A DNA stretch of 55,776 bases from a bacterium (GCA_028698175.1 JAQVDU010000002.1:1-55776); one strand, 5' to 3'. Positions 2,762 through 22,157 are shown, counted from the first letter of the stretch. Translations and numbers: made by a program. The notes: generated by a model from the sequence alone, not told the origin.

Positions 2762-3727
2762 ATGAAAAAACTGTTTGTTCTCTTCTTGACAACTCTCTTT
2801 CTCTTGAGCTCATGCTCACTTATCGGATACAACACAATAAAGATCAGTATTCCTGCGGAGTACATCGACCAGATAGACAAACTCATCGTCTCAATTGCGA
2901 ACGGAGACGCTGTTGATGAAAAGGAGATTGAAGAGATATCCGAGGAAATCTCTTTCACTCACTTCGGATTTATAGACGTAATAATGGCATACGCTTACAA
3001 TGCGCAGGGTGTTCTTCTCTTCACCGGAAAGGGCGGAAAGAACGACCTTAACATAGAGCTTGACTATGCCGGAGCAAACGCGGCAAGCCACATTGTGATT
3101 TTTCAGGACGGACTTCCCTGGGGAACGACTTCAATGCAGGACATGCTCTTGGCAGAGGGATTCACTGAGGGAGACGGTGAGAACCAGTATGAATTCGTGA
3201 CATCGGACGAAATATCAGGATTCGGGCTCAATCCGTACACAGACCTTCTCATAATAGCCAATGACCAGGCGCAGACATTCTATGATGTTTTAGGCGCGGA
3301 CAACGGCAAAATAAATGATTTTGTTTATTCAGGAGGAACGGTTCTTTGGGAAGTGTGCGACAACGGTTGGGCGTACGGCGACATAAAATCTGCAGGAATA
3401 GAGCTTCCCGGCGGAATAGAGATAAATCTTCTCTATGAGTATTACAATACTATAATGCAGCCGGATCACAAGATGTTTGACGGCATAACTCTGACGGAAC
3501 TTTACAACAACTACGCAAGCCATGAGTATTTCACCCTTCTGCCCGCCGGAACAAACGTTCTGATGAACGGGTCGGACTCAGACCAGCCGACTCTTGTAGT
3601 GTATCCTCACGGAGCAGGAATCGTATTTATGACAGGACAGCCGCTTGAGCATGCTTACATATACAATCCGGAGTCAATGGGACTCATTCTTCCCCGTCTT
3701 GTCAAGCTTGTCTTGGGAAAACTCTGA
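2762..3727 (+). CDS. Lipoprotein with one ThuA/class-I-glutamine-amidotransferase-like module
   Basis: AAGGAGG SD upstream and a signal peptide with lipobox LLSSC. Residues ~110-305 (HIVIFQDGLPWG..LLIIANDQ..VYSGGTVLWE..ELPGG..GAGIVFMTGQPLEH) align motif by motif with the middle of the 767-aa protein at 13981. Confidence 0.8.
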   Translation: MKKLFVLFLTTLFLLSSCSLIGYNTIKISIPAEYIDQIDKLIVSIANGDAVDEKEIEEISEEISFTHFGFIDVIMAYAYNAQGVLLFTGKGGKNDLNIELDYAGANAASHIVIFQDGLPWGTTSMQDMLLAEGFTEGDGENQYEFVTSDEISGFGLNPYTDLLIIANDQAQTFYDVLGADNGKINDFVYSGGTVLWEVCDNGWAYGDIKSAGIELPGGIEINLLYEYYNTIMQPDHKMFDGITLTELYNNYASHEYFTLLPAGTNVLMNGSDSDQPTLVVYPHGAGIVFMTGQPLEHAYIYNPESMGLILPRLVKLVLGKL

Positions 3728-3750
3728 TAAGTTTTTTTTGTATAACTATT

Positions 3751-3779
3751 AGAGGCGCCTTTCGGCGCCTCTTTTTTTT
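3751..3779 (+). terminator. Intrinsic terminator after the lipoprotein gene
   Basis: Perfect 9-bp GC-rich stem agaggcgcc/ggcgcctct with a tttc loop, followed by a run of T. Confidence 0.8.
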
Positions 3780-3863
3780 GCCTGCATATTAATAAAGAAT
3801 TTTCTATTGACACTGAAACCTTTTGTGATAAGATAAAGTTTAATAGACAATTATGGAGGTTTT

Positions 3864-5660
3864 ATGAAAAGGATAATCCTTTTGGCATTGGTACTCACTT
3901 CATTTTTTTGCTATTCGCAAAATTTTGACAGCTTAAAAATCCTACTTATAGATTTTGACGAGGGAAAAACATTCGCAAACCCTGACAATTCTCAAAATAT
4001 AGGGTATGAATACAATTTCATAAAGGCATTCAAGGCTTTGGGGTTCAGCGAAGATTCAAACCTGGTTGTGAAGGAAAAGATACCGGAGAGTTTTGACTTG
4101 ATCAAGGACTATGCAGCAATCTTTTTCATTACAGGTCACAGACCTTATGTCGGAGTAGATTTAACTGTAGCCAATATAACAAACTTTGAATCCTATCTTG
4201 ATTCAGGAGGATGTTTGTACATTGAGGGAAACAATGCTCCAAGCGGAATTTATGACAAGGATTCCTTGTTCATGTTCAACTATTTTAACAATTCCTGCAC
4301 TGACAACGGAGGAACCGGATTTTCTGGAATAGACACGATAGTTTCAGATACCACAGACACCCTTGACCCGTTTTTCAGATTTTACAAATTTGTTTATCCG
4401 GCAAATACAAAACCGGATTCTTCAGTCGACGTCATAGGACCAAAGAACCCCAACCTTCTAAAAGTCAATTACAGAAACCTTCTGCAGTATGATGACCAGA
4501 CAAAGCTTTACAAGTCAACATCCTCTTCATACACCCCTCCGGAGACAAAGACATTCTATTTCCCCGGAAAGACAGTAATGCAGTCGGTGGCTTTCAGCGC
4601 CTTTGCCGACCCCCAGAATGCTCAGGATGCGCTTGATGATTCCCTTGAAAATCAATTGATAAGAGCGGCATATTTAAGGGACATTCTCAAATACTTCGGC
4701 ATAGGAAAAACGCTCCTTGTAAAAGATGACGGAGAGGTTGCCTTAAGCGATAAAAAAATCATTGAATCCTTGGATAAATTGGGAGTTGAATTTGATGAGA
4801 TTTCAGTTAAAACCGGAGGAGCTGGACCAAACTATAAAACTCTCGTTAAATATGCCAATGTTATCTGGTACACCGGCGAGGAGTCTACGCTCTCTCTTCT
4901 TGCGGCAGACACATTTGCATTAAGCAGGTACCTTGACTTCGGCGGTGACCTTCTTCTCTCAGGGGAGAATCTTGCTCAGGGTATAGGTGTCCCTGACACA
5001 AACACGCTTCTAAATGAAAACAGATTTTTATCAATGAAAATGAGGGTAGATTATATCGGAAACCCTTTCAAAGCTCCTGAAGGTTTCAATGCAAACGTTG
5101 ACGGGCATTTCTACGCAAACTTGGGCTCAAGAATCTGCTCCCTTGAAACAGTGACAACATCAAAACCGGACATGCTTAGGCCGTTTCTTATAGGGCACGT
5201 CGATTCTGCATTCTATTTCTACACACTCACAAAGGGCAATAATATTGTAGGCATAGCAAACGAGGGAATACTCAGAAAAACAATCTTCTGCGGTTTTTCA
5301 ATAGAAAATCTTTATCAGAGAGACCTTGATTCCGTTCTTGAGGTATCTTTTGTCGATTATTTTGACATGAACCTTGATTTCGAACCGAGGAAGTGGGATG
5401 ATGCAACCTCTTATTCAAAGAGGGATTCTGGAAAGATGTTTGTTAAAACAAACGAAAATTCCCCGAAAGTATTCTGCGTTCAGAGAACCCTATTTGTCGA
5501 AGGACTTTCAAAGCCAGAGCTTCTTGACATATCAGGGAGGAATCTGACAAACCTTGAAAGCGGGTATAACAAATTAACATCCGACATAAAAAGCGGCGTC
5601 TATTTTGTAAGAGGAGAGTATCGCGGTTCTTTCTATGTGAAAGTGATAACGGTTTTTTAA
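3864..5660 (+). CDS. Secreted T9SS-cargo protein, paralogue A (two ThuA/GATase1-like modules plus C-terminal sorting domain)
   Basis: GGAGG SD and a signal peptide. Internal duplication (KILLIDFDEG..LDSGGCLYIEGNN and KTLLVKDDGE..LDFGGDLLLSGEN). The C-terminus SGVYFVRGEYRGSFYVKVITVF fits the T9SS type-A CTD pattern. Confidence 0.85.
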   Translation: MKRIILLALVLTSFFCYSQNFDSLKILLIDFDEGKTFANPDNSQNIGYEYNFIKAFKALGFSEDSNLVVKEKIPESFDLIKDYAAIFFITGHRPYVGVDLTVANITNFESYLDSGGCLYIEGNNAPSGIYDKDSLFMFNYFNNSCTDNGGTGFSGIDTIVSDTTDTLDPFFRFYKFVYPANTKPDSSVDVIGPKNPNLLKVNYRNLLQYDDQTKLYKSTSSSYTPPETKTFYFPGKTVMQSVAFSAFADPQNAQDALDDSLENQLIRAAYLRDILKYFGIGKTLLVKDDGEVALSDKKIIESLDKLGVEFDEISVKTGGAGPNYKTLVKYANVIWYTGEESTLSLLAADTFALSRYLDFGGDLLLSGENLAQGIGVPDTNTLLNENRFLSMKMRVDYIGNPFKAPEGFNANVDGHFYANLGSRICSLETVTTSKPDMLRPFLIGHVDSAFYFYTLTKGNNIVGIANEGILRKTIFCGFSIENLYQRDLDSVLEVSFVDYFDMNLDFEPRKWDDATSYSKRDSGKMFVKTNENSPKVFCVQRTLFVEGLSKPELLDISGRNLTNLESGYNKLTSDIKSGVYFVRGEYRGSFYVKVITVF

Positions 5661-5695
5661 CTTTTATTGTTTATTCTAAATCATAGGGGAGTAAA

Positions 5696-7492
5696 ATGAA
5701 AAGAGTTCTTATTTTTGTGACTGCAATCTTTTCATTATCGGCATTGTGCCAGAATTTTACTGATCTGAAGATTCTCCTCGTGGATTCGGACGACGGAAAG
5801 ACCTTTCTGAATCCCGACAATAATTCAAAATCCATTGGCTATGAATATAATTTTTTCAAAGCATTTGAAATGCTCGGGTTTGACACTCTTTCCGGAAATT
5901 TAAAGAGGGGAAAGCTTCCTCTTGTTTTTAATGAATTCAAGCAATATGCTGCAATATTCATAGTTTTCGGACACAGCACCGTTGACGCTACAGACCTTTC
6001 TCTTTCTGATATCGACAATCTTGAGGGCTATCTTGAGTCCGGCGGATGCCTTTACATAGAGGGCAACAATGCCATAAGCCACATTCAGGGGTTGGACTCT
6101 CTCTTTTTGTTTCTTTACTTCAATAATTCCTGCTTGAGCGACGGAGGCGCCCTGTTCTCCGGAATTGATACGATAGTATCCGACACGACGGACACTCTTG
6201 ACCCTTTTTTCCGTCTGTATAAGTTTGTTTACCCGGCAAATACAAAACCGGATTCTTCAGTTGACGTCATTGGACCAAGGGACCCCGGTCTTCTAAAAAT
6301 ATATTATAAAAATCTTCTTAAATACGACGACCAGACAAAACTCTATAAATCAGTCTCTTCGTCTTACACTCCTCCGGAAACAAAAGTTTTCCATTTTAAT
6401 GGAAGAACCATAATGCAGTCTGTTGCTTTCGGAGCATTCTCAGACCCGCAGAATGACGATGACCGTTTGGATGATTCTCTTGAGAACCAGCTTGTCAGAG
6501 CTTCATATTTAAGGGATATATTGAAATTTTTCGGAATTGGAAAGACGTTACTTGTGAAAGATGACATGGGAGAGTCGGGCAGCGACACAATTATAAGAGC
6601 TTCGCTTGACAGTTTAAAAATCGACTATGACATTATTCCTGTCGCCTCTAAAGCGGATGGACCCGGATACAAAACTCTATCTGAATACAGCGCGGTTATA
6701 TGGTACACGGGCGATGCAGACACTTCATTCACTTTAACCAAGCAGGACACTTTTAATCTTGGGATCTTTCTGTCTTACGGCGGAAATTTGATTCTGTCCG
6801 GAGAAAATATCGCGACAGACATAGGATTTCCTGATACTAACTACAAGCTGGAAAATCCTTTTCTGGCAAAGAATTTCGGTATGGATTTCATCGGAAAGAA
6901 CAAGACCCTTACAAGTTCATTCAGGGCATTTGCCTCCTCCGACTCGGTGCTGAATCCGTATTATGAAAACGGATACACGAGAATCTGCTCCCTTCAATCT
7001 TCAAGCAAGCCTGACCTGATATTCCCCACAAACCTTCGGGGAACCCACGTTTATCCCACGTACTATTTTCACACTCTTACAAAAGGAGACAATATGGTCT
7101 CTCTCTTTTATGAGGGTGAGAACAAAAGAACAATTTTTTTCGGTTTTCCCATTGAGGATATCCTTGCGGGAATGCTTGATTCCACCTTAAAGGTTTCTTA
7201 TGAAGACATCTTTGACATAAATCTTGATTTCAAACCTATTGACAGTCTTCGCTGGTTGAATACTCAAAAGGATTTTCTGAAGTTCAGACAGAAGGAAAAA
7301 ACATCTTCTCCAATGATTTTTCTTTGGCAAAAGAGCTTGTTTTTATTCGGTGCATGCGAAGCGGATATAATTGACCCTGCGGGAAGATTCATGATGAAAA
7401 TTTATGAAGGGGAAAACAGCATAGAAAAACTTTCCCGCGGAATATTCTTTGTAAAGGGAAAGAGCTTTGCAAAAAAAATCAGCATTTTATAA
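5696..7492 (+). CDS. Secreted T9SS-cargo protein, paralogue B (tandem duplicate of 3864..5660)
   Basis: Same length (598 aa) and collinear with paralogue A. C-terminus RGIFFVKGKSFAKKISIL. The 41-aa block FSGIDTIVSDTTDTLDPFFRLYKFVYPANTKPDSSVDVIGP is shared with A at 40 of 41 positions. Confidence 0.85.
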   Translation: MKRVLIFVTAIFSLSALCQNFTDLKILLVDSDDGKTFLNPDNNSKSIGYEYNFFKAFEMLGFDTLSGNLKRGKLPLVFNEFKQYAAIFIVFGHSTVDATDLSLSDIDNLEGYLESGGCLYIEGNNAISHIQGLDSLFLFLYFNNSCLSDGGALFSGIDTIVSDTTDTLDPFFRLYKFVYPANTKPDSSVDVIGPRDPGLLKIYYKNLLKYDDQTKLYKSVSSSYTPPETKVFHFNGRTIMQSVAFGAFSDPQNDDDRLDDSLENQLVRASYLRDILKFFGIGKTLLVKDDMGESGSDTIIRASLDSLKIDYDIIPVASKADGPGYKTLSEYSAVIWYTGDADTSFTLTKQDTFNLGIFLSYGGNLILSGENIATDIGFPDTNYKLENPFLAKNFGMDFIGKNKTLTSSFRAFASSDSVLNPYYENGYTRICSLQSSSKPDLIFPTNLRGTHVYPTYYFHTLTKGDNMVSLFYEGENKRTIFFGFPIEDILAGMLDSTLKVSYEDIFDINLDFKPIDSLRWLNTQKDFLKFRQKEKTSSPMIFLWQKSLFLFGACEADIIDPAGRFMMKIYEGENSIEKLSRGIFFVKGKSFAKKISIL

Positions 7493-7571
7493 ACAACCGA
7501 ACTAAAGAACAACTCTTCCGGAAATCCAAATCGTATTGCATAATTGTTATTTTATGTTAAAATAACATATT

Positions 7572-9533
7572 ATGAAGAAAGTATTTCTTTTCATTTTTCT
7601 TCTTTATTCTATCAACCTATTTGCCGAAAGATACATTGTTGAATTTTCCGGCAAGCTTCCCGACAGAAAAGCAGACGGATTCGTCAAATCAAACGCAAAA
7701 TATAATTTCATTGTCATCGATTCCGATTTTGACAGAATAAAGTCAACCTATCCGGATGCGTCAAAAATCTACAGAGAGCCGAAAGTCCGCGCTTTCTATA
7801 CCCCGAATGACACATACTTCTCTTATCAGTGGTCTTTAAGCCCGGTCCACTATAATCTTTCCCACATTCTTGACAGAGGAATACTCGGCAGCAGGTCGGT
7901 TGTAATCGGCGTTCTTGACACCGGCGTCTCATTTGAAGATTATCCCATACCATCAAACGAACAGGGCCTTGTCGTCTCTGCAACCAATGAATATGAGATG
8001 TACTCGGATTTTGAATCAGTAAATTTTGTGCAGGGTTATGATTTTGTCTCCGACGACTCTCATCCTAATGACATGAACGGCCACGGAACGGCAGTGACAA
8101 GCGTAATTGCCTCCTCCATAAACAATGCTCTTGCCACATCGGGAATAATTATGGAGGCATCCATCATGCCGTTAAGGGTTCTTGACGAAACAGGAGCAGG
8201 CAACCTGACAGACATACTGGACGCGATTGAATACGGCGTTTCAAACGGCTGCGACGTTTTGAACCTCTCTCTCGGAGGAGAGCCGGGAGATTCAAACGGA
8301 TGGGACATTCTTCATTCCGCAATTATAGACGCGCGCAACAGCGATGTTATGGTTCTTGCGGCATCAGGCAATGACAACGTAAACATGCTCTCATACCCAG
8401 CGGGTTTTGAGGAGACTGTATCAGTCGGAGCAGTAGATTACTATTTTGAAAGAGCTCCATACTCCCAGTACGGAACCAATCTTGATTTTGTCGCTCCGGG
8501 AGGATACGTATATCAGGATATAAACGGAGACGGAGAGAATGAGGGCGGAATACTCTGCCCTATGCCCGAGCAGACGGAGAGCGGAGCAAACGTAAATGAT
8601 TTTTACCTTTACTTTGTGGAAGGAACCTCTTTCTCCACGCCCCACTTGAGCGCTCTTGCCGCTTTAATGTATTCAATGGGATATTCCACGGTTGATGAAA
8701 TAACATCGCTCATGATTGACGCTTCTCTGGACTTGGGCGGAACAGGATATGACCTTGTGTACGGATGGGGTTATCCCAAGCCCGAATCACTCTTCTCCCA
8801 GCCGGTCGCCATAAAAACCGTGGACTTTGACATTGCTTCAAATATTCTTTTTTTCTCCATGATTATCCTCAACGATTCATTCTCCCTTGATTCAATAACC
8901 ATTTCTTCGCTTCTGGTGAATGAAAAACTCAATTATGAAAGTTACGGAAAAATAATCATGACAGAGTTTTCTGCCTCAAAATCAGGTGTTTATACAATCA
9001 CAGTTTTCGGAAAGAAGAACGCGGAAGGATATCAATTCAAAAGGGAGATTGCACTCAAGAGCATGTCAGACCCTTCAAATTTTGTTTACCACGGAAACAT
9101 TCAGATGCTTTCAGATTCTCCGTTTGCATTGTTTTTTGACAAAGAGAATGTCATATCGCCTTTAAAGCAAAGCGTTAAGGTGGTCATTCCTTCAAAGAAC
9201 TCTTCCCGGAGCGAAGTTTTCTGCGGAGACATAAAGATAAAAGCTTCAAGATTCTCTGACAGAATCGAATTTATTGCCGACAGAAAAGGAACCTATAGAG
9301 TCTTGGAATCTTCATCTTCCGCATATCCCGCAGAGGATATCTTTTCGAGAAAGAGCATCCTGCTCTCCAATACGACTCTCGACCTTGAAGGACGAGAGGG
9401 AAACCTGTATGACAAAAGCGGACGCCTGCTCGCTAATTCAAGGAATTTCACAATCTCCTTTGAAAAACTTCCCGCAGGAATCTATTTTGTAACTTCAAAA
9501 AATATGCTATGGAAAATAACAAAACTCTTCTGA
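7572..9533 (+). CDS. Subtilisin-family (S8) serine protease with T9SS C-terminal sorting domain
   Basis: Catalytic motifs VLDTGV (Asp), GHGTAVTSVIA (His) and GTSFSTPHLSALAAL (Ser). Signal peptide present. C-terminal LPAGIYFVTSKNMLWKITKLF. Confidence 0.9.
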   Translation: MKKVFLFIFLLYSINLFAERYIVEFSGKLPDRKADGFVKSNAKYNFIVIDSDFDRIKSTYPDASKIYREPKVRAFYTPNDTYFSYQWSLSPVHYNLSHILDRGILGSRSVVIGVLDTGVSFEDYPIPSNEQGLVVSATNEYEMYSDFESVNFVQGYDFVSDDSHPNDMNGHGTAVTSVIASSINNALATSGIIMEASIMPLRVLDETGAGNLTDILDAIEYGVSNGCDVLNLSLGGEPGDSNGWDILHSAIIDARNSDVMVLAASGNDNVNMLSYPAGFEETVSVGAVDYYFERAPYSQYGTNLDFVAPGGYVYQDINGDGENEGGILCPMPEQTESGANVNDFYLYFVEGTSFSTPHLSALAALMYSMGYSTVDEITSLMIDASLDLGGTGYDLVYGWGYPKPESLFSQPVAIKTVDFDIASNILFFSMIILNDSFSLDSITISSLLVNEKLNYESYGKIIMTEFSASKSGVYTITVFGKKNAEGYQFKREIALKSMSDPSNFVYHGNIQMLSDSPFALFFDKENVISPLKQSVKVVIPSKNSSRSEVFCGDIKIKASRFSDRIEFIADRKGTYRVLESSSSAYPAEDIFSRKSILLSNTTLDLEGREGNLYDKSGRLLANSRNFTISFEKLPAGIYFVTSKNMLWKITKLF

Positions 9534-10069
9534 TTGCTTTTGTTCTTATTGCGATAGCCGCATGCTCTCTTGTGAATCCTCTATCGGAGGACGGCTGGGT
9601 TTACGTTAAAGAGGATAATCTGTCAAAGGCGCATGCAAAATTCCTTGAAGATTTTTCCAGATTTCCCGATTCTCTTGACATAATGGGCGGGCTCTCATAT
9701 ACGTTTTTGGTTTTTAACGAAATGGATTCTTCAAAGCATTATCTGGATTTGACAAGGGCAAAAGAAAAAGACAATAACTTTTTCATATTTGCATCTCTCC
9801 TATATTTCAGAGACGAACCCGATAGCGCATCTTTTCAATACAGAAAATTTGTATCCAAGTACTCTTCTTTTCCGCTCTATGCCGTGAGGGATGCAATAAA
9901 ATCAAACACGCTTCACAAACTTGGGCTCACAACGGAGATTTTAAGAGACAGTTTTGACTATGCTTATGGAGTTTTGAAGAGAATAACGGAAATTGATGAT
10001 TCATTAAACATGAATTTGGATGAAGACAGGTTTCTTGTTATAGAATACATAAATTCTCTGGAGGAATGA
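9509..10069 (+). CDS. Small helical lipoprotein, unknown function
   Basis: Signal peptide with lipobox IAACS. Its start overlaps the S8 gene by 25 nt and its stop overlaps the purE start (ATGA). No recognisable family. Confidence 0.6.
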   Translation: MENNKTLLIAFVLIAIAACSLVNPLSEDGWVYVKEDNLSKAHAKFLEDFSRFPDSLDIMGGLSYTFLVFNEMDSSKHYLDLTRAKEKDNNFFIFASLLYFRDEPDSASFQYRKFVSKYSSFPLYAVRDAIKSNTLHKLGLTTEILRDSFDYAYGVLKRITEIDDSLNMNLDEDRFLVIEYINSLEE

Positions 10070-10524: not shown

Positions 10525-11122
10525 ATTAGAGAAGATTGTCGATCTTTTAAATAAAGGCCAGGTGGTTGCATTTTCAACCGACACAGTGAACGGCATGGGC
10601 GCTCTTTGCAATTCAAACTCGGCGATTGAAAAAATATTTTCTTTGAAGAAGAGAAGTTCGGAAAAACCGTTTGCCCTGTTCTTTCATTCAAAAGTGCGGG
10701 CTCTCGAATACTTTGAAAGATCTCCTCTCCTTGAAAGGGTGATAGACGAATTTATGCCGGGACCCCTCACAATAGTCGCCAGAGTGAAAAAAAGAATAAA
10801 TCCTCTTTTGGCAAAAGACAATTTTGCGTCATTCAGAATACCGAAAGACAGAAAAATTCTTCTTCTCCTTGAATCCCTCGACAAACCTTTGGCTGTGACG
10901 TCCCTGAATCTGTCAGGAAAAAATGTCATCACCTCAAAAGAAGAAGCATTGAAAGTTTTCAAGGATGTAAAGATCTTTGGAAAGCTGAGCGAAAAGAGCA
11001 TTCCTTCCTCAGTCATAAGAATCTGCAACTGCGAAATTGAATTTTTAAGAGAAGGAGCAATCTCAAAAAGCGGATTTTTTAAAAGAATAAAAAACATCTC
11101 AAATAAGGAGATCATATGCTGA
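10511..11122 (+). CDS. tsaC: L-threonylcarbamoyladenylate synthase (YrdC/Sua5 domain)
   Basis: YrdC-fold pattern: VVAFSTDTVNGMGA, KKRSSEKPFALFF, PGPLT. About 200 aa, the single-domain TsaC type. Confidence 0.8.
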   Translation: MAGTELEKIVDLLNKGQVVAFSTDTVNGMGALCNSNSAIEKIFSLKKRSSEKPFALFFHSKVRALEYFERSPLLERVIDEFMPGPLTIVARVKKRINPLLAKDNFASFRIPKDRKILLLLESLDKPLAVTSLNLSGKNVITSKEEALKVFKDVKIFGKLSEKSIPSSVIRICNCEIEFLREGAISKSGFFKRIKNISNKEIIC

Positions 11123-12456: not shown

Positions 12457-12469
12457 GACAGGAGGAACA

Positions 12470-13921
12470 ATGTTTAAACTTGGAAATTTGGCGATTGAAA
12501 CCGCAAAGCACTATGGGGCTGACTATGCGGATATAAGGATAATCGAAACAAAGAACGAAGATCTTAACGTCAGAAACGGAAAGGTCAGCGCGGATTATTC
12601 GCAGACCCTTGGCTTCGGAGTAAGGGTTCTTTACAGGGGGTCGTGGGGATTCGCGTCAAGCGACACTCTGACAATGGAAGAGGTAAAGAAAGTTTCAAAA
12701 GAGGCTGTGCTCATAGCAAAGGCATCCAACACCCTTCAGGCTGCAAAAGTCAGGTGGGCTAAGGAGGATTCCTATAAGGACCACTGGTTCACTCCCGCAT
12801 TGAAGAATCCTTTCCGCATACCTCTCGAGCAGAAACTCGATTTAATGCTGAAAATAGATGAAATTCTCAGAAAGAAGCCGGAGATAAGGGTCTCCACGGT
12901 TGAAATGTCATTTCAAAACATAAGAAAATGGTTTGTAAACTCGCAGGGAAGCGAGATACTGCAGGACCTTATGAGAAGCGGAGCCGGATACTCGGTCACA
13001 TCCGTGGGAAACAATGACATGCAGGTTCGCTCATACCCGGCATCATTCGGAGGACAGTACTATTCAGGCGGCTATGAGATAGTGGAGCAGATGGAGCTTC
13101 TGCAAAATGCAGAAAGAGTGAGGGAAGAGGCGATTGAACTTCTAACCGCGGACGAATGCGAAGAGAAGGTCTCTGACGTCATTATAGGCGGTTCGCAGAT
13201 GGTTCTTCAGATTCATGAATCCGTGGGACACGCAACGGAGCTTGACAGGGTTTTGGGTTATGAAGCAAATTATGCCGGAACATCATTTGCCACTCTTGAA
13301 AAGTATAAGAAATTCAAATACGGCTCTCCGATAGTGAATTTGTTCGCCGACTCAACCATTCCTCTCGGCCTCGCCACGCACGGATACGATGATGACGGAG
13401 TCAAAGCTCAGAGGTGGGACATAGTCAAGAACGGTGTGCTTTCAGGTTATATGACCAACAGGGAGCTTGCTCACAAAATTAATGACACAAGGTCAAGAGG
13501 ATGCTCGCGCTCTCAGGGATTCTCATCGATCCCTATCATAAGGATTGCAAACCTCTCCCTGGCGCCCGGCGAATGGGAGCTGGATGATTTGATAAAGGAT
13601 ACAAAAAACGGCGTCTTCATGGACACGAACAAGTCATGGTCAATAGACCAGATGCGCCTCAACTTTCAGTTCGGATGTGAAATCGGCTATGAGATAAAGA
13701 ACGGGAAGAAGGGAAGAATGCTTAAAAACTGTTCGTATCAGGACATTACTCCCGAGTTCTGGGGAAAGTGCGACGCAATATGCAATGAAAACCATTGGGA
13801 CCTCTGGGGCGTTATAAACTGCGGAAAGGGACAGCCTGGACAGAGGGCTGAAATGTCCCACGGTTCATCTCCCGCAAGATTCAGAAAAGTTCATATAGGA
13901 ATAGGAAATAAAAAAAGGTAA
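12470..13921 (+). CDS. tldD: TldD-family zinc metalloprotease
   Basis: HESVGHATELD (HExxxH) motif and a GSCGKGQ-like CGKGQPG near the C-terminus. Paired with pmbA. Confidence 0.88.
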   Translation: MFKLGNLAIETAKHYGADYADIRIIETKNEDLNVRNGKVSADYSQTLGFGVRVLYRGSWGFASSDTLTMEEVKKVSKEAVLIAKASNTLQAAKVRWAKEDSYKDHWFTPALKNPFRIPLEQKLDLMLKIDEILRKKPEIRVSTVEMSFQNIRKWFVNSQGSEILQDLMRSGAGYSVTSVGNNDMQVRSYPASFGGQYYSGGYEIVEQMELLQNAERVREEAIELLTADECEEKVSDVIIGGSQMVLQIHESVGHATELDRVLGYEANYAGTSFATLEKYKKFKYGSPIVNLFADSTIPLGLATHGYDDDGVKAQRWDIVKNGVLSGYMTNRELAHKINDTRSRGCSRSQGFSSIPIIRIANLSLAPGEWELDDLIKDTKNGVFMDTNKSWSIDQMRLNFQFGCEIGYEIKNGKKGRMLKNCSYQDITPEFWGKCDAICNENHWDLWGVINCGKGQPGQRAEMSHGSSPARFRKVHIGIGNKKR

Positions 13922-13980: not shown

Positions 13981-16284
13981 ATGAAGAGGGTGTTATGTTT
14001 TTCATTTATTCTGTTTGTGTTTTTGTCTTTATCAGCCTCTTCGGGAGGCTCTCCAAACAAAGAGAACAGCTCTTTCAACGGCTACCTTGTCTCCGACTCT
14101 GTCATTGACACACTGAACTATGGCAGAACAGGCTCAAACGGAATTGAATTCGACGGAAGGTATTTTTACATTGCAAATGCAGTGCCGGACCCCGCCTTTG
14201 TTTACAAATTTGACTACATATACGGGCTTCTCGATTCTTTTGTCATGCCGGCAAACGGAAACATTTTCGGCATAGGCATACAGAACAACAATTTGTACGT
14301 AGCGAACTGGACAAACGGCACCATCCACAAGCTTACGGTTGACGGAACCCCAATAACAACACTGACATCTCCTGCGGGCACAGGCACAAGGGGAGTGACA
14401 AGCGACGGAGCAAACCTATACATCGCCTCAACAAACGGCGGAACAAACACAGGCTTCATATTTGTCACTGATACCCTGATAAACATTCTCGACACAATTC
14501 ATATAGCATCCATTGTCGGATGGCCTATGGACATTGCATTCTGCGATGTTGATTCTACACTATGGGTTCTTGACGATACTGCAAACAAAGTGTGGAAACT
14601 CGACATATCGGTTGACCCTCCTGTGATTGTGGATTCCCTGCCTGTTCCTTTCGGAGGCTCCCTTACGGGCGAGGGCGTCGCCTTTGACGGAAATGACCTT
14701 TGGATTACAAATTACTCTGATACTTTTGCTTACAGGTATGACCTCGGCATAGCGAAGACAAGGGTGGCTTATTTTGAGGACCATGCTCCATGGACATCTT
14801 GGGCGAACGAGGATATTCTATGCAGAAACAGAGTTGCATTTCATTACTTCACATCCCTGGATCTGCCTACTGTTGATTTTTCAAAGTTCCAGAAGGCAAT
14901 ATTCGCAAGCCAGCAGGAAAACACATTTTATACTGCGATAACGGACAATAGGTCGATGCTTGAATCATGGATAAACAATGGCGGAATATTCCAGCTGAAC
15001 GGAGCAACTTATGATTCATATTCATGGGCGGGGCAGATTATGCCGGGAGGATTTTCAATGGTTCAGCAGATGATTGACACTGCGACAATAATGAGCGCAT
15101 GGCATCCGCTTTTGAATGAATTCTACACAGCAGATTCCGCCAGCCTTGTCGATTGGGGCAGCGTGATGCACGGAAGACTTACAAATCTGCCTGCAGATGC
15201 TTACAATGTGCTTTTAACTGGCGACTCTCTCAATGCGGGTCTTTCAATATTCAGAATGGGAAAGGGCGGAGTCATAGCCACTACGCTTACTGCGGAATAT
15301 GCTTTCGACAATGCCTTCTCAGAAATTGCAGAGAATATAGACATGTACTGGATAAACGGCTGCTCTCCAAATGTGCTTTGGGCCGTGGCCGATCCTCCTG
15401 CGCCGGTTATAACAAAGGCGATAGAGGAGTATCCTGATTTCGGCAACATTGACTATATGGATTCAAGGACCTTCATTCCAAGCCAGTTGGATATGTCAAT
15501 GTACGATGTCGTTTTAACATTTCCCGATTATTCATACGCTGACGCAGAGCTTATGGGAGATTCTCTTTTTGAGCATGTTCTTAACGGCAAATGGGTTGTG
15601 ACATGCGGATGGTCATGGTACACTACCGGAAATTACCTCGGAGGCGAGATAATGAATCCTACATACAATCCATTCTCTCCGCTTGACGGAACAAATCATT
15701 TGTCAAACGCGAATCTCGGAACATTTGTTGCGGGACATGAATTCATGAACAATGTTTCAACTCTCACATCATATTTCAGGGATTATCTTGTTCTCAATTC
15801 CGGAGCAGACACTGTTGCAAGGTGGAGCGATGACGAATGGCTCCTCGGGTACAGAAACCTTCCGGGAATCATGGGAGGCATAGTGGGTCTCAACATTGTG
15901 CCTTCTGATGATTATGTCTCCGGGGGAGAACTCGCTGGGGATTACGTTCAGCTTGTTCACAACGTTCTTTTGGTCTCTGAACTTACTCCTGTCGAGGAGA
16001 TTGCCCTTGATGGAAGATCAAATGAATTCAAGACAGAGGTAACTTCTATCACATCTGGAATTTTCAGGGCATCATTTTCTTCTCCAGTCATGGAACATAC
16101 GCTCATTTCTGTATATGACAAAACCGGAAGGGTTGTCTTTGAGAAAGATTTTTTCAATGCAAACGGTCTTAGAGAGGTCTCCTTTGACGCTTTAAAAGAG
16201 AATATTTCATCCGGAGTTTATTTCTTCAGAATCTCTTCCGGGAAAAATCTTGTAAAAGGAAAATTCCTTTACATTTCAAAGTGA
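13981..16284 (+). CDS. Secreted T9SS-cargo protein: NHL-like beta-propeller plus ThuA/GATase1-like module plus C-terminal sorting domain
   Basis: Signal peptide present. Repeated blades (GIEFDGRYFYIAN, NNLYVANWTNGTIHKL, GANLYIAS, STLWVLDDTANKVWKLD, GNDLWITN). The middle region is homologous to the 2762 lipoprotein. C-terminus SGVYFFRISSGKNLVKGKFLYISK. Confidence 0.85.
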   Translation: MKRVLCFSFILFVFLSLSASSGGSPNKENSSFNGYLVSDSVIDTLNYGRTGSNGIEFDGRYFYIANAVPDPAFVYKFDYIYGLLDSFVMPANGNIFGIGIQNNNLYVANWTNGTIHKLTVDGTPITTLTSPAGTGTRGVTSDGANLYIASTNGGTNTGFIFVTDTLINILDTIHIASIVGWPMDIAFCDVDSTLWVLDDTANKVWKLDISVDPPVIVDSLPVPFGGSLTGEGVAFDGNDLWITNYSDTFAYRYDLGIAKTRVAYFEDHAPWTSWANEDILCRNRVAFHYFTSLDLPTVDFSKFQKAIFASQQENTFYTAITDNRSMLESWINNGGIFQLNGATYDSYSWAGQIMPGGFSMVQQMIDTATIMSAWHPLLNEFYTADSASLVDWGSVMHGRLTNLPADAYNVLLTGDSLNAGLSIFRMGKGGVIATTLTAEYAFDNAFSEIAENIDMYWINGCSPNVLWAVADPPAPVITKAIEEYPDFGNIDYMDSRTFIPSQLDMSMYDVVLTFPDYSYADAELMGDSLFEHVLNGKWVVTCGWSWYTTGNYLGGEIMNPTYNPFSPLDGTNHLSNANLGTFVAGHEFMNNVSTLTSYFRDYLVLNSGADTVARWSDDEWLLGYRNLPGIMGGIVGLNIVPSDDYVSGGELAGDYVQLVHNVLLVSELTPVEEIALDGRSNEFKTEVTSITSGIFRASFSSPVMEHTLISVYDKTGRVVFEKDFFNANGLREVSFDALKENISSGVYFFRISSGKNLVKGKFLYISK

Positions 16285-16294
16285 TTTTGTTTGC

Positions 16295-16320: not shown

Positions 16321-16322
16321 TC

Positions 16323-16351: not shown

Positions 16352-16436
16352 AAATCAAATACAAGGAGGTATTTGGGAATTGTATAAATCTATTAATGAT
16401 AAATCAAAAGAAACAATCAAAACAAAGGAGGAAAGG

Positions 16437-18062
16437 ATGACCTTTAAGAGAGTTTTGTTTTTACTTGCACTCTCGGTTCTCTGCATTTCCGTGTCTGCTC
16501 AGTTCGCATCATTCAGGAGCCTGTCGACTGCAGGACTTTTGGATGACAACATTGAGGCGATACTTGCGGTCACCGAGATGACCTATGTTGACGGATTCAA
16601 CATATTCACAAACCTTTCAAACTTCGACTATCAGTCGGAGGACATTTTTGACGGCTATTCTGACAATTATCTCATAGGATTCAAGGGTTCGATGATGGAC
16701 ATGCTCCACCTCGGATTCCTATCCGCGTCAGAGGGCTACAAATACGGCTACACAGACACTGTCACGTCGACAGAGTACATTGACAACAACGGCGACGAGC
16801 AGTATGACGAATTCATCACAGAGAATGAGACTGATGAATATTTTGAAGGAGATAACTACTCAACAAACTTCGTCGCATTCACATTCGGAAAGCCTGAAGG
16901 CGTCAAAGCCGGATTCTCCTACACCAATTACAGGGGCAACTATGCTTACGATGAGGTTTATACTGATGTCGTGAGGGATTCAAACAGAATCTCCGGCGAT
17001 TTGATGAGGCTTTACAATGAGTGGTATTATTATGATTATACTAATCCGTACACTGATAACGCTCTCACCCTTAACGGCGCATTTTCAACAGGCGCGATGG
17101 AGTTCGCACTCAACATAGGGCTTGAGTTCCTCAAGGGCAATTACTTTGACTATGAAGTGGACTCATTCATTGAGGACCTCTCACCTGCAAACCCCTCGAT
17201 GCCTTTCCAGTATAGCGGAGTTTACAATGACTCAACAGAGTACACTCAGAACGGCTTCGGTTGGAACGTGGGTCTTCAGATGTACTACAGAACTTCGAAT
17301 CAGGATTCAATAGAGTTCGGAGGATACGTCTCAAATGTAAACTACGGAAAAGCGCACTACACTTCAAACTATTCAAACCAGTATGATGCAATTTATCCCG
17401 GCATTGTTGAAAATGAAACATACTCATATGACTACAATGACTCTTACGGCGACTCAACAAGTTCATTTGCTGAAGCATACATGTCATGGGGCGTCGGCGG
17501 AAAATTCGTCAAAAAGCTTGAAAAGGCGCACTTTGCAATGGGAGCATTCTTCGGCCAGTATAAAAACAGCGAAATTGACACTTCAAATTATGACTACACC
17601 TACGAAGAGAGATACAATGACGGAAACGGAATGGATGACTTAGGCGACTATGAGTACTATGAAGAGGGTTCATACTCAAGAGAGTATGCCTACAATTCTC
17701 TTGGTACATACATTTACCTGCCGGTAGGCATTGAGTATAACTTCTGGGGTCCTTTGACGGGAAGGCTCGGAGCAGAGACGAACCTCAGTTGGTACAACTC
17801 ATACAGCTCTGAAAAGTTCTTCGCCTTTGACCCGGGAACATACACTATAACCTATGGCGACGGATCCGTCTATGAATACCTCAATGATCATGACTCATAC
17901 AGAGAGGATTATTCCTACGGATATTCGTCTTTTGACCGCTCAACATACTTCTCATACGGAATAGGATGGGAAATTTCAAAGAATGTCAAAGTTGATTTCA
18001 TGGGATTCTCAGACCTCACCGATATGACAGACTGGTCAATTTCAGCCAATGTCAAGTTTTAA
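16437..18062 (+). CDS. Tyr/Asp/Asn-rich outer-membrane beta-barrel-like protein, unknown family
   Basis: AAGGAGG lies 5 nt before ATG 16437, followed by signal peptide MTFKRVLFLLALSVLCISVSAQ. I count ~66 Tyr in 541 aa and no Cys after the signal peptide. Ends in an OMP-like terminal SISANVKF. The tracked ORF starts at TTG 16380, giving an in-frame 19-aa leader with its own SD. Confidence 0.75.
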   Translation: MTFKRVLFLLALSVLCISVSAQFASFRSLSTAGLLDDNIEAILAVTEMTYVDGFNIFTNLSNFDYQSEDIFDGYSDNYLIGFKGSMMDMLHLGFLSASEGYKYGYTDTVTSTEYIDNNGDEQYDEFITENETDEYFEGDNYSTNFVAFTFGKPEGVKAGFSYTNYRGNYAYDEVYTDVVRDSNRISGDLMRLYNEWYYYDYTNPYTDNALTLNGAFSTGAMEFALNIGLEFLKGNYFDYEVDSFIEDLSPANPSMPFQYSGVYNDSTEYTQNGFGWNVGLQMYYRTSNQDSIEFGGYVSNVNYGKAHYTSNYSNQYDAIYPGIVENETYSYDYNDSYGDSTSSFAEAYMSWGVGGKFVKKLEKAHFAMGAFFGQYKNSEIDTSNYDYTYEERYNDGNGMDDLGDYEYYEEGSYSREYAYNSLGTYIYLPVGIEYNFWGPLTGRLGAETNLSWYNSYSSEKFFAFDPGTYTITYGDGSVYEYLNDHDSYREDYSYGYSSFDRSTYFSYGIGWEISKNVKVDFMGFSDLTDMTDWSISANVKF

Positions 18063-18077
18063 TTTTAGGAGGAAACA

Positions 18078-19331
18078 ATGAAAAGATTTATACCATTGAT
18101 TCTTGCCATACTGCTGATTGCCGCAGGCTGCACATTCAAGCCCTATGACGGAACAGATTATTCGGCAGACTTTGAGCCGGCCACAACGGGAACTGTCGCT
18201 ATTCAGCTCACAGGTTCAAGTCCTGCTAACGGAGGCAACATTCAGGACACGGATTTCGACACCGGGGACATTGAAGGAATCATATACATTTACTTCAATG
18301 ATTACCTCAATTCAAGCGCCGCCACTGCGACAAACTTCGCCCTTAATCCAAACGGCTCTGCAGGAACGATAACTTCGATAACTGTGGCCTATGAGAAGAA
18401 TTTCAGAAGGGTAAAGCTTACAGGCACATTTGCAAATAATGCGACATACTCTTTGAAGATATCTGCAGACGGAGTCAAATCGGCAGGCGGATGCTACATT
18501 GACGGAAACGGAAACGGAATCGACGACGGTTCCCCGTATGATGACATCTACTTCCAGTTTGCAACAGGAACCGGTAACGACTGGGCAGACCATGACAACC
18601 CGCGCCTGAACGGCTTCTGGCCTGAGGGCGGACAGGTTGCGGTTGACGGCGGATTTCTTGTCACTTTTGATGAAGTAGTCGAATCAACTGACGTGGTAAA
18701 CGGAGTCACTCTTGTAAGAGAGAGCGACGGAATGAATATAAACCTTGAACTTCTTGTCTACTTCGGAACAGGTGCGTTATTCGGAGTCAACGGAGGAGAT
18801 TCGCTTGCGCAGAGACAGGCATACCTTATGACTGTCGAACTCAACACAATATCAGACTCAGCAGGAAACACTGCTCTTGCTTACAATGATCCATATACTG
18901 CAGAGACGCCTGACTTTGTGTCAAGGTTCGTCACAGAGTCCTATGAGGGAGATGATGACACCCCGCCGACAGTTTGGAATATAAGCTTCCCTTGGGGCGG
19001 CGACTTCATGACCATAAACTTTGACGAAGCAATGGACATTACAACACTCACTTCAAACAACATTAAATTCTATGCCGACTTCGGAAACGGACCGGTTTAT
19101 GTGCCCGGAGACCTTTATGTCAGGCCTGACACAACAGCTGTTGAGTATTCGCTCATAAACTTCAACTGGGATGATTTCAATCAGGGTCTTCTTGTTATTG
19201 AAAAAGAAGTCACGGACAACTCGGACAAGAAGTGGATGCTTGATGCAAACGGAAACGGAATCGGCGGAGAAGAGGCAGACATTACAAGACACGGCTATGA
19301 AGATTCCGATAATTACAACGAATGGTTCTGA
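18078..19331 (+). CDS. Lipoprotein with SbsA/Big_5-like Ig domains and DGNGNGIDDG calcium-site-like loops
   Basis: GGAGG SD and lipobox IAAGC. Repeated 'ATNFALNP..VKLTG..YSLKIS'-type Ig-like segments. Two D-x-N-G-N-G-I-(D/G) loops. Confidence 0.7.
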   Translation: MKRFIPLILAILLIAAGCTFKPYDGTDYSADFEPATTGTVAIQLTGSSPANGGNIQDTDFDTGDIEGIIYIYFNDYLNSSAATATNFALNPNGSAGTITSITVAYEKNFRRVKLTGTFANNATYSLKISADGVKSAGGCYIDGNGNGIDDGSPYDDIYFQFATGTGNDWADHDNPRLNGFWPEGGQVAVDGGFLVTFDEVVESTDVVNGVTLVRESDGMNINLELLVYFGTGALFGVNGGDSLAQRQAYLMTVELNTISDSAGNTALAYNDPYTAETPDFVSRFVTESYEGDDDTPPTVWNISFPWGGDFMTINFDEAMDITTLTSNNIKFYADFGNGPVYVPGDLYVRPDTTAVEYSLINFNWDDFNQGLLVIEKEVTDNSDKKWMLDANGNGIGGEEADITRHGYEDSDNYNEWF

Positions 19332-19352
19332 TTTTTGATTTAATGGCTTTAT

Positions 19353-19383
19353 AAAAAAGGGGGCTATAAGCCCCCTTTTTTTT
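19353..19383. terminator. Bidirectional intrinsic terminator between convergent genes
   Basis: A-run, then gggggct-ata-agccccc, then a T-run. Serves 18078..19331 (+) and 19392..22157 (-). Confidence 0.85.
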
Positions 19384-19391
19384 GCTGATAT

Positions 19392-22157
19392 TTAACGCAA
19401 TACGGAAACCTTCTTTAAAATTTCTTTATCCGATGTTTTTACTCTCACAAAATAGACTCCGGTCTTAAGATTCTGTCCCACATCTGCTGTAAAGGTCTCT
19501 TTATCGGCAAAAACCTTTTTCTTTGCTACGACTCTTCCGGAAACGTCTGTTATGGTTATCAATGCCTCGCCTGCGGAAGATCCAAGGAAAAGAACCTTTA
19601 CGCTCTTCATGTCGGAGTTTATCATTATTGAATTATCGGCTCTTTTTTTATCTTCAATGCAGACGGCAGAGAGGTCTCCGAAGAGGCCAAGAACATTTTT
19701 TACCAACTCGGCTGCATCTGCCGTATTCATGTAAAACAGAGGAACTGCCGCTACAACAGCAGAAGTGTCATTTGCTGCGAAGATAATCGGTTTCATGTGA
19801 AAGGCAGTGTCTCCCACTGTCGAATGGTAGAGTCCCAGAGGATAAGACGAACCTGTTAAACCGAATACTCCTCCATAATACATGTTTCCGTCTCCTCTTG
19901 GAAGCTTTTCTTCCACAAAGCGCGCAGTATCACTAACTCCGTTTATAGACCAGCTTACATATTCAAGCTGGTAGAGAGTGTTTCTGTTGTAATAATCTAT
20001 TCCAAGAAGAGTTCTGGCATCCGAAAGGGACTCTGAGAAAGCAGGGAATGTCGTCGGATTATCGAGGAGGGATTTTCCTATATTCCATCCGAAGAGAGCC
20101 ACTCTTCCGCCTGCCTCTATATAATCATAGAGGTCTTCATAGTCTATTTTGTTTGCGCTCAGATCATCATCGATGTAAAGAATTCTTTTGTAAAGGCCGA
20201 ATTCCATCATTGAAGTTGAAGCTATCGAATCGGCGTCTATAATTTCATATGCGAAATTGCCCATGATTGAATCATAAAATGCGTCAGTAGCGCCGTCAGT
20301 GGCGGTTCCTCCGTTGTTTGTCTCATCAATCACCAGGAGCTCTTTCACTCTGCTGACAATCCTTGTTTTTAAGGTGTCGGAGGGAGCAGACTCGTTCGAG
20401 TCAAAGTCGATTGCAGTCACATAGTAGCTGTATACGGCGCTGTCAGACAGAGAACCATCAACGTAAGTTGTATCCGACGTAGTGTCAACCGCAAAGAAGG
20501 AACCTTCTCCTATTCTTCTGTAGATTTTGTAATGAGAAAAATCGGCCGCCTTTGACGAATTGTAGAGAATCCTGATCTCAGAGGATGAACCGTATGCGTC
20601 TATGCACGAGATTTTGTTTGGTACAAACGAAGGCCTTACGGTGTCTGTCGCTTCGGAAAATGCCTCTATCCCTGACGTATCTATCGGAGTTATTCTGAAT
20701 GTATAAAGGAGACCCGGAATCAAGGATGAAACATTGTATTCGTTTGTATCGGGAGCGTCTGCAAACTGTTCAAAAGCATCTCCTTCTTTTTTATAGTATA
20801 TCCTGTATGAAGATATGTCATTGTTTATTGTTTTTATCCAGGAGACCGAGACGGAAGAGTCGCCATTGTCAACAATGGAAAAATCCGTCACGGGAAGCGG
20901 CATTTGGGAGAGATAGTAAGCGGTTGCTGTTCCGGTTTGCGCCAACTCTTTCATGAAGTCAAAGTTGAGAAGATGTATTGAATCCTTTGTAGAATGGTAT
21001 ACTGGGGAAAAGTCATATTCAATGGCGAATGCAGATTTGAATCCTGCCAGGTCGAAAGGATAGTGGTCGCTTCCGGAGCTTGAACCTCCGATATGGGTTA
21101 TCAGCGTTGTGAATGTGTCAGCCATCATCTTGAAAATGTTTTTAAGAGGGAGGGAGTGCGTCATTCCGTATAGGTCATACTGGTATGTTGAAGACGGGTT
21201 GTAACCTATCATGTCAAAGTTGACCATTCCAAGAACGTGCATGCTGTTTGGAATTATGTAATTGTTCACGAAATACTCTGAGCCGTAAAGGCCGAATTCC
21301 TCGCCTGAGAATAAAACAAAATATATATCGTAATCGCTTTCGACTGACATCAGAGACCTTGCGGCTTCAAGAACTCCGGCTGAACCGGAAGCATTGTCAT
21401 CCGCCCCCGGGGCTATGTAATAATTATTGGAATAATCGTCATAGTGGGCTCCTACAACAATGCACGTATCATGAGAGATGGTTCCTCTCTTAAGTCCGAC
21501 AACATTCTTCGTGTTGTAGACGCTGCCGTAAGAAAAAGAGAAGTTTTGAAAATATACAGAATCAAAACCCATGGAATCCATCACAGATTTCAGATAAACC
21601 GCGGCTGAATCAACCCATGTGGTGACTGAGACCCTCGAAGCGCTATAGGTCCCCTGCGGATACGGAATTTCTCCGCTGAGTATCGCCACTTTTTCATAAA
21701 GAGAATCTGCAGAAATAATGTTTATAAGAGAATCAATTTCGCCCATAAAGCTTTTTTTGCCGGGGAGGTAGGGATTATAATCATACTTATACGTTTCTTT
21801 TATAGGCCTTTCAAAATTCAGGTTAAATATTTCCCATTCTCCTCTTTCTTCTGCAGAGGGAATCCTGTCAAGAAGAAGAATTGAAGATTCAAAATCTGCA
21901 AAGAGATATTCTGGAATATTCTTTACTCTGTTTTTGTCGTGAGAAAGAGCAATGAAGTAGTCTTTTCCCTGATCAAAGGGAATTTTCATAATAATTTCGC
22001 CTTTGGCGGAATTATCTTTTGAAAGCCCTATTTTGAAAGCTTCAAGGTCATAGTAGGTTGTTGTGTTTTGAGCTTCTCCATTGAAAATGATTATTTCATC
22101 GGAAAAGGCAAAAATTGACACTGTTGCAAGAAACAGCAGAAGATAAAATTTTTTCAT
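19392..22157 (-). CDS. M28-family aminopeptidase with FN3-like repeats, a ThuA/GATase1-like module and a T9SS C-terminal sorting domain
   Basis: M28 metal ligand motifs GAHYDD, PGADDNASGSAGVLE, FSGEEFGLYGS, DMIGY. Then KELLVIDETNNGG..RILYIDDD..IEAGGRVALFGWN. C-terminus KTGVYFVRVKTSDKEILKKVSVLR. Confidence 0.88.
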   Translation of the reverse strand: MKKFYLLLFLATVSIFAFSDEIIIFNGEAQNTTTYYDLEAFKIGLSKDNSAKGEIIMKIPFDQGKDYFIALSHDKNRVKNIPEYLFADFESSILLLDRIPSAEERGEWEIFNLNFERPIKETYKYDYNPYLPGKKSFMGEIDSLINIISADSLYEKVAILSGEIPYPQGTYSASRVSVTTWVDSAAVYLKSVMDSMGFDSVYFQNFSFSYGSVYNTKNVVGLKRGTISHDTCIVVGAHYDDYSNNYYIAPGADDNASGSAGVLEAARSLMSVESDYDIYFVLFSGEEFGLYGSEYFVNNYIIPNSMHVLGMVNFDMIGYNPSSTYQYDLYGMTHSLPLKNIFKMMADTFTTLITHIGGSSSGSDHYPFDLAGFKSAFAIEYDFSPVYHSTKDSIHLLNFDFMKELAQTGTATAYYLSQMPLPVTDFSIVDNGDSSVSVSWIKTINNDISSYRIYYKKEGDAFEQFADAPDTNEYNVSSLIPGLLYTFRITPIDTSGIEAFSEATDTVRPSFVPNKISCIDAYGSSSEIRILYNSSKAADFSHYKIYRRIGEGSFFAVDTTSDTTYVDGSLSDSAVYSYYVTAIDFDSNESAPSDTLKTRIVSRVKELLVIDETNNGGTATDGATDAFYDSIMGNFAYEIIDADSIASTSMMEFGLYKRILYIDDDLSANKIDYEDLYDYIEAGGRVALFGWNIGKSLLDNPTTFPAFSESLSDARTLLGIDYYNRNTLYQLEYVSWSINGVSDTARFVEEKLPRGDGNMYYGGVFGLTGSSYPLGLYHSTVGDTAFHMKPIIFAANDTSAVVAAVPLFYMNTADAAELVKNVLGLFGDLSAVCIEDKKRADNSIMINSDMKSVKVLFLGSSAGEALITITDVSGRVVAKKKVFADKETFTADVGQNLKTGVYFVRVKTSDKEILKKVSVLR

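Follow-up and report, generated by a model that had tools for sequence, protein, structure and literature searches.

Seven predicted GATase1-like modules of two sequence families in five secreted bacterial proteins

A 55,776-nucleotide stretch of bacterial DNA (GCA_028698175.1 JAQVDU010000002.1:1-55776; hereafter the window, with positions counted from its first letter) contains five genes for secreted proteins that together carry seven modules resembling the class I glutamine amidotransferase (GATase1) domain. The first gene (2762–3727, + strand) encodes A321, a lipoprotein of 321 residues composed of a signal peptide with an LSSC lipobox, a β-sandwich (residues 23–99), and one module. It is followed by the genes of two paralogues of 598 residues, B598 (3864–5660, +) and C598 (5696–7492, +), which are 54% identical and share a layout of two modules and then a C-terminal domain (CTD) like that of cargo proteins of the type IX secretion system (T9SS). 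D767 (13981–16284, +; 767 residues) has a weak NHL/SGL-like N-terminal region, one module, a region comprising residues 456–680, and a T9SS CTD. E921 (19392–22157, − strand) is an M28 peptidase (Pfam M28, 1e-34) with an fn3 region (8e-13), one module, and a T9SS CTD. Signal peptides are present on all five carriers, which are real gene products.

The modules belong to two families. The A/D type comprises residues 105–321 of A321 (3074–3724, +) and 258–445 of D767 (14752–15315, +). The E/B type comprises the N-modules of B598 (residues 24–282; 3933–4709, +) and C598 (residues 24–282; 5765–6541, +), the C-modules of the same proteins (residues 283–505 of B598, 4710–5378, +; residues 283–506 of C598, 6542–7213, +), and residues 599–837 of E921 (19647–20363, −), where the hidden Markov model (HMM) of the family covers residues 598–837. 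The first-pass annotation of this DNA had described the segments as seven copies of one module. The motifs that it quoted are all present in the sequence at the positions given: they span H110 to H297 of A321 and R261 to Y440 of D767, and lie at K25, A84, L112, K281, A331, L357, and K470 of B598 and at K605, R658, and I680 of E921. All seven segments are real domains that are homologous within the groups of five and two copies, but the link between the two groups is only suggestive.

Pairwise BLASTP found two relationships only, that between residues 107–299 of A321 and 258–442 of D767 (E 1e-7) and the paralogy of B598 and C598. Profiles were built from 17 B-family proteins, 31 homologues of A321 (A family), and 65 E-family representatives. 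The E family consists of representative clusters that an exhaustive HMMER search collected with the E921 module as query; a word-indexed search had returned nothing, the parent protein included. Comparison by hhalign joined the N-half of the B family to its C-half with a probability of 97.6% (E 3.7e-12), and the E family to the B C-half (98.1%, E 8e-14, 182 columns) and to the B N-half (95.4%, E 1.7e-8). The C-module of B598 is the one nearest to the E921 module. The A family was joined to the single D767 sequence (97.9%, E 3.5e-13) and to four D767 orthologues (98.8%, E 4e-17). Single-sequence comparisons of E921 and D767 with the other profiles were uninformative, and full profiles were needed. 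When the database size was set conservatively to 1e6, the E-family HMM directly matched the C-modules of C598 (2e-8) and B598 (1e-5; residues 307–397), and the N-modules of both proteins were recruited in round 3 of the iterative search. The HMM of the B598-type N-module matched that of C598 with E 1e-111, and the E/B superfamily HMM matched residues 24–234 of C598. HMM scans, including a six-frame scan of 294 open reading frames (ORFs) of the whole window, found no further copy of either module. All named homologues of the module proteins belong either to the candidate divisions WOR-3 and TA06 or to unclassified metagenome-assembled genomes, and the named A-family members to WOR-3, in agreement with the lineage restriction proposed earlier. 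The window accordingly derives from an uncultured bacterium of this type.

AlphaFold2 models of A321, based on the 31-sequence alignment, and of B598 were each searched against the PDB by Foldseek. The model of A321 (pLDDT 92.9) contains the β-sandwich of residues 23–99 followed by an α/β domain, which matched STM3548 (2gk3, 5e-7, TMt 0.55), 3soz, lin1909 (3fij), and a ThuA-like protein (4pxy, TMt 0.52), as well as SpuA (7d50), the PabA-type protein 8hx9, and glycosidases of the GH42, GH164, and Op5Man5 GH5 types. The model of B598 (pLDDT 74.6) matched OST48 (6s7t_G, 6.5e-8), the GIFT domain of IFT52 (5fmr/5fms, TMt 0.54–0.59), GH42 (5xb7), MetA (2ghr), and PabA (8rp2). Common to both models were matches to 7vkw/7x87, 6t5o/7oms, 5xb7, and aminodeoxychorismate synthases (8hx9 for A321, 8rp2 for B598). 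The modules of A321 and B598 are thus predicted to have the class I glutamine amidotransferase-like fold, and the same fold is assigned to the modules of D767, C598, and E921 through their homology to the modelled proteins. The proposal that the motif order reflects a ThuA/GATase1-like fold of the GldG-type GIFT kind is borne out by the two models and by weak matches of the B family to DUF4159 (15 of 17 members, best E 1.6e-5) and IFT52_GIFT (two of 17, 1e-5). These matches are below the level of annotation: the DUF4159 profile (PF13709; cut-off 25.9 bits) gave 14.2 bits for B598, over residues 87–123 of its N-module, and 13.7 bits for C598, and no window protein matched IFT52_GIFT (PF23355). 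The ThuA profile (PF06283) matched neither A321 nor D767 nor any of the 31 A-family members in the Pfam scan, and PDB sequence profile searches with the A and B families returned T9SS CTDs only. Neither Pfam nor NCBIfam has a model that matched the module of any E-family protein (65 examined), of the 31 A-family members, or of D767; the modules are covered by no curated model and, as had been noted, have no assigned function. We are highly confident that the seven segments are independently folding α/β domains with a GATase1-like (flavodoxin-like) fold and that they represent two previously unmodelled sequence families.

The position of the E-type module within its proteins is very regular. 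In E921, the module immediately precedes the CTD. A Por_Secre_tail domain is found in 55 of the 65 E-family representatives, M28 in 40, and fn3 in 41, while M1, M6, and NHL/SGL domains occur in single members, so that the earlier statement that the module is attached to different heads holds for M28, M1, M6, and NHL/SGL-type regions. The distance from the end of the module to the C-terminus is 66–113 residues (median 95) in 59 of the 65 proteins, so that the sorting domain follows the module immediately. Of the other six proteins, five end at most four residues after the module and look like truncated gene calls, and one has a 218-residue tail. The C-modules of B598 and C598 occupy the same position just before the CTD.

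The sorting tails of the carriers differ in how clearly they are recognised. The tail of E921 passes both T9SS models (TIGR04183, 32.2 bits, cut-off 23; PF18962, Por_Secre_tail, 29.4 bits, cut-off 27), and D767 passes TIGR04183 only, narrowly (23.7 bits). B598 scores below the cut-off of TIGR04183 (17.2 bits). Its C-terminal β-sandwich (residues ~533–598; 5460–5657, +) resembles a type-A CTD of the T9SS, with a Foldseek match to 8glk_D (TMt 0.67), matches of the family profile to the PDB CTDs 8glk_D and 5hfs, and PF18962 in nine of 17 homologues. The tail of C598 has no HMM match and is recognised from its alignment to B598 and a BLAST match to the CTD of the S8 peptidase encoded nearby (E 0.003). 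The claim of the first-pass annotation that four carriers end in T9SS-type tails is borne out for E921 by both models and for D767 by one, supported by structure and family for B598, and dependent on alignment for C598. The fifth carrier was correctly called a lipoprotein: residues 15–18 of the N-terminus of A321, MKKLFVLFLTTLFLLSSC, form the lipobox L-S-S-C, which agrees with the pattern [LVI][ASTVI][GAS]C, and the LPAM_1 model matches six of the 31 A-family members. The N-terminal β-sandwich of A321 (2828–3058, +) ahead of the module is modelled confidently with about seven strands, and in some A-family members PKD domains replace or join it.

The N-modules of B598 and C598 combine an E/B-type core with a β-rich insert. 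The 17 B-family proteins share 25 invariant positions in this module, although they are only 28–54% identical to B598 overall. The invariant residues include D30, D32, D41, E49, N66, C117, D185, D189, K214, Y216, S218, R267, Y270, and D273, and many invariant positions are located within the insert, for example in YP..PD..VD and KLYKS..YTPPE. A neighbourhood comparison of the B-family genes found no conserved gene context, as expected for a stand-alone cargo protein. A related metagenome-assembled genome (JBFXGO010000002.1) encodes an A321 orthologue with 81% identity and, in place of B598 and C598, has one broken B-like gene (11113–12352 of the locus compared). Only its residues 15–151 and 302–522 are recognisable, distributed over ORFs of 90 and 272 residues, and a CTD is absent. 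Because this locus contains a single decayed gene, the duplication that produced B598 and C598 was recent and the gene is dispensable. The B-like family is being lost in that relative, and only the lineage of the window has the tandem pair.

In D767, the region between the module and the CTD (residues 456–680; 15346–16020, +) is preserved in three orthologues and has an α/β-like order of elements, NVLWAVAD .. YDVVLTFPD .. NGKWVVTCGW. Although it showed no similarity to the profiles of either module family, even with four orthologues, to Pfam, or to the PDB, it may represent a third domain of this type that has diverged further.

Catalytic class I amidotransferases have a nucleophile elbow with the sequence G-x-C-x-G after strand β4, followed by a helix, and true amidotransferases have His-Pro-Glu after the last core strand, as we checked on PabA. 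The E/B family does not contain this Cys-His-Glu triad. The elbow position is occupied by E-G-N-N or S-G-E-N in B598 and C598 (G-N-N in the N-module and G-E-N in the C-module), by F-G-W-N in E921, and by N-G-A-T in D767. After the last core strand, V-P-L-F is found in E921, F-S-I-E in the C-modules of the B family, T-L-T-A-E in D767, and G-Q-P-L-E in the A family. It had been suggested that a conserved His and Cys mark the N-modules of B598 and C598 as a catalytic subset; this does not stand. His92 is retained in only 11 of the 17 homologues and replaced by Asn or Pro in the others. Cys117 is invariant in the B family, but it opens strand β4 (residues 117–121 of the model), whose other end is where GATases have the nucleophile elbow. 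The residues that are conserved in the E/B family are mostly acidic and are located in the loops after β1, β3, β4, and the last strand, according to DSSP assignments of the models; in E921 they are D611-E612-T613, D664-D665, G690-W691, and P806-L807, and further Asp residues are conserved as well. The loops following the core strands form the ligand-binding crevice in this fold.

The A family differs in this respect, and catalysis by its module is possible, judging from conservation. C199, two residues after β4, is present in all but two of the 31 sequences. S253 is invariant, H254 and E255 are conserved at 90%, and G292-Q293-P294-x-E296 is invariant directly after the last core strand. An alternative to a binding role is that the A family, the N-modules of B598 and C598, or both are enzymes on a GATase1-like scaffold, with the other copies as degenerate partners. 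The A-family module would then depend on its Cys and act as an amidohydrolase or a C26/C56-type peptidase, and the N-module would have a non-canonical Asp/Glu/Ser/Lys site. The conservation of these A-family residues, the occurrence of true hydrolases (C26-like 3fij and SpuA, 7d50) among the Foldseek matches of A321, the 14 invariant residues of the N-module listed above, and the neighbourhood rich in peptidase genes (S8, TldD/PmbA, M28, S9, M3) speak for such enzymes. However, the E-V-C-D-N sequence around C199 differs from the small-x-nucleophile-x-small elbow and is not followed by a helix in the A321 model, and Gln occupies the position of the GATase His. The His-Glu pair is missing in three A-family members, and D767 and its orthologues have Ala or Thr instead of the Cys, while D767 keeps His397 and Glu439. 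An hhalign comparison of all module profiles with E. coli PabA (identical to 8rp1_A) gave no signal, and Pfam models of GATases or peptidases did not match these modules. For the N-module, the variable His92 and the location of Cys117 at the wrong end of β4 are likewise unfavourable. The GATase1-like domains of GH42, GH164, IFT52, and OST48 are non-catalytic. Taking both proposed enzymes together, we consider this explanation unlikely.

The relationship between the two families has to be judged from signals that are weaker than those within them. One explanation of the shared motifs, as first proposed, is that one recently expanded, lineage-specific domain family gave rise to the seven segments. 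The order of motifs is identical in all seven segments, and the fold class is common. The merged E/B and A/D profiles aligned over their full length in the register proposed earlier (49.6%, E 1.7e-4, 173 columns), and in the six-frame scan with the E/B HMMs the top ORFs outside the family were A321 (E 0.006) and D767 (E 0.1), which matched at equivalent HMM positions. Nevertheless, A321 and D767 were never recruited in four rounds of the iterative E-family search, and the individual comparisons were weak (E family against A family 23.7%, E 8.5e-4; A against B about 1%; the single D767 sequence against the B halves and E 0.1–3%). The signatures of the families differ, with WEaCD, SHE, and GQPLE in the A family and VDET, DD, GW, and PL in the E family, as does the context of anchoring, by a lipoprotein or next to a CTD. 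A single recent family is decidedly improbable; according to the sequence comparisons, the two families probably share a common but much older origin. That they have only a generic three-layer α/β architecture in common, with convergent or chance likeness of motifs, is still more doubtful: inter-group hhalign probabilities do not exceed 50%, strand-Asp and helix-GG-strand patterns are common in Rossmann-like folds, and Foldseek TM-scores to any one template are modest (0.4–0.6), but both models match the same GATase1-like proteins rather than other Rossmann-like folds, the inter-group alignment is full-length and in register, and A321 and D767 are specifically the top non-family matches of the E/B HMMs.

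The E/B modules resemble the GIFT domain (IFT52, GldG, OST48/Wbp1; PF23355, ABC_transp_aux) in fold (5fmr/5fms, 6s7t_G), in the absence of the triad, and in the tandem arrangement found in OST48 and likewise in B598 and C598. Two B-family members match IFT52_GIFT, yet no module encoded in the window reaches the cut-off of any Pfam or NCBIfam model. The E/B modules differ from GIFT domains in that they occur in T9SS cargo before the sorting domain, whereas GIFT domains belong to auxiliary proteins of ABC transporters and to eukaryotic complexes, and in the large β-rich insert with its own invariant residues in the N-modules of B598 and C598. The best relative at the level of sequence is DUF4159, a member of the GATase1-like clan, which the B family matches over β3, the helix, the GG, and β4. 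None of the 65 E-family or 31 A-family members matches it, and a literature search on DUF4159 and on T9SS peptidases of WOR-3 found nothing relevant.

The structures that fit the A321 module best include ThuA-like and STM3548-type proteins (PF06283, PF07090; 2gk3, 3soz, 4pxy), although there is no match by sequence profile. According to their PDB titles, STM3548 and STM1381 are cytoplasmic single-domain proteins, whereas A321 is a lipoprotein with an additional β-sandwich, and the A family has its own signature of Cys, SHE, and GQPLE. Both models also match the GATase1-like domains of GH42, GH164, Op5Man5 GH5, and an Ignavibacterium β-1,2-glucosyltransferase. In glycosidases, these are non-catalytic accessory domains attached to the catalytic head of secreted or degradative enzymes. 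The heads encoded in the window are peptidases or propellers instead of TIM-barrels, and the module is C-terminal, beside the CTD. Catalytic class I GATases and C26 peptidases (PabA, SpuA, lin1909) have the same fold (8rp2, 8hx9, 7d50, 3fij), and the A family resembles them in the Cys just after β4 and in x-P-x-E after the last core strand. It differs from them by having Gln-Pro-Leu-Glu and by the lack of the G-x-C-x-G elbow; the E/B modules and D767 have no Cys at that position.

Based on the family relationships, predicted fold, and domain architecture, a role for the modules can be proposed. The E/B module is a GIFT/DUF4159-like domain of predicted T9SS cargo in WOR-3/TA06-type bacteria, placed directly before the sorting domain whatever the head. 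In Bacteroidota, the CTD is cleaved off and surface lipopolysaccharide becomes linked to the new C-terminus. If the same processing takes place here, the E/B module would become the anchor-proximal domain of the secreted protein. It may serve as a non-catalytic pedestal that docks or oligomerises the cargo at the outer surface, or binds a ligand of the surface or the substrate through its crevice. In B598 and C598, the C-module would be the pedestal, and the duplicated N-module a much more conserved head with a specific site of its own. The A/D modules are a separate family with this fold, related to the first remotely if at all, which in A321 is presented on a lipoprotein and not on T9SS cargo. 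The same-fold domain of GH42-type glycosidases mediates oligomerisation. We favour the non-catalytic pedestal because the triad is absent, the heads vary, the position is adjacent to the CTD, and analogues with the same fold dock or oligomerise. Because the E-type module so regularly precedes the T9SS CTD, the docking or ligand-binding idea of the first-pass annotation gains in plausibility. The GIFT domains of IFT52 are protein docking surfaces (PMC9753473), and those of Wbp1/OST48 were proposed to be sugar-binding or docking platforms (PMC7226087).

Several points weigh against this proposal. The conservation of the N-modules of B598 and C598 is enzyme-like, and the A family keeps its near-invariant Cys, Ser-His-Glu, and GQPxE. 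The link between the A/D and E/B families reaches only 50% by hhalign. No gene of the T9SS machinery (PorK/L/M/N, Sov, PorU/V) was seen among the scanned ORFs of the window, and T9SS processing and surface attachment in WOR-3/TA06 are extrapolated from Bacteroidota. The ligand, partner, and oligomeric state of the module are suggested by analogy, and the conserved residues appear to cluster in space according to their positions in the secondary structure only. Considered as a whole, two GATase1-like families with a non-catalytic, anchor-proximal docking or binding pedestal in the E/B type, the balance is slightly in favour of our proposal.

We speculate further that a new enzyme family, with an active site rebuilt on the amidotransferase-like scaffold, may be represented by the N-module of B598 and C598 and perhaps by that of the A family as well; a duplicated, non-catalytic copy, serving as a dedicated anchor-proximal pedestal, would display the enzyme on the cell surface. 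The triad would be replaced by the invariant set of Asp, Glu, Lys, Ser, and Tyr in the N-module, or by Cys and Ser-His-Glu in the A family. Together, these suggestions are rather improbable. If they were true, T9SS cargo throughout the WOR-3/TA06 lineage would require the E-type module, a component not recognised before, for its attachment to the surface.

The window is dense in peptidase genes, which encode an S8 peptidase with a T9SS-like tail (7572–9533), a TldD/PmbA pair, and M28, S9, and M3 peptidases, and which occupy positions 7572–9533, 11116–13921, 19392–26279, and 35067–36911. An ABC_tran_2 gene is located downstream of that of the S9 peptidase. Such a density would fit a protein-degrading lifestyle. 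The end of the S8 gene overlaps by 25 nucleotides with an ORF of 186 residues (9509–10069, +) that has a lipoprotein-like N-terminus (IAACS) and no Pfam match; an ORF of 170 residues follows the S8 gene at the same place in the related genome. Two genes are located between those of D767 and E921. The first (16380–18062, +) encodes a 560-residue protein with a signal peptide and no Pfam match, extremely rich in Tyr, Asp, Asn, and Gly, which may be an outer-membrane β-barrel, and the second (18078–19331, +) a lipoprotein with Big_5 Ig-like domains. Since dnaA (36956–38299) and dnaN (38473–39585) are adjacent on the + strand (36956–39585), and the cumulative GC skew has its minimum around 32–38 kb, the window probably spans the chromosomal replication origin.

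What is new here are sequence families within a known superfamily and their very regular architectural context; the advance is incremental and introduces no new principle. Two or three domain families that Pfam and NCBIfam do not detect at present, comprising about 65, 17, and 31 clusters, can now be defined within the GATase1-like/GIFT superfamily. They will be of use to annotators, for whom many T9SS cargo proteins are currently hypothetical, and they offer a candidate anchor-proximal domain to researchers of the T9SS. The fixed position of the E-type module before the sorting domain, behind varied peptidase heads, suggests that these uncultured WOR-3/TA06 bacteria have a lineage-specific way of displaying degradative enzymes at the surface.

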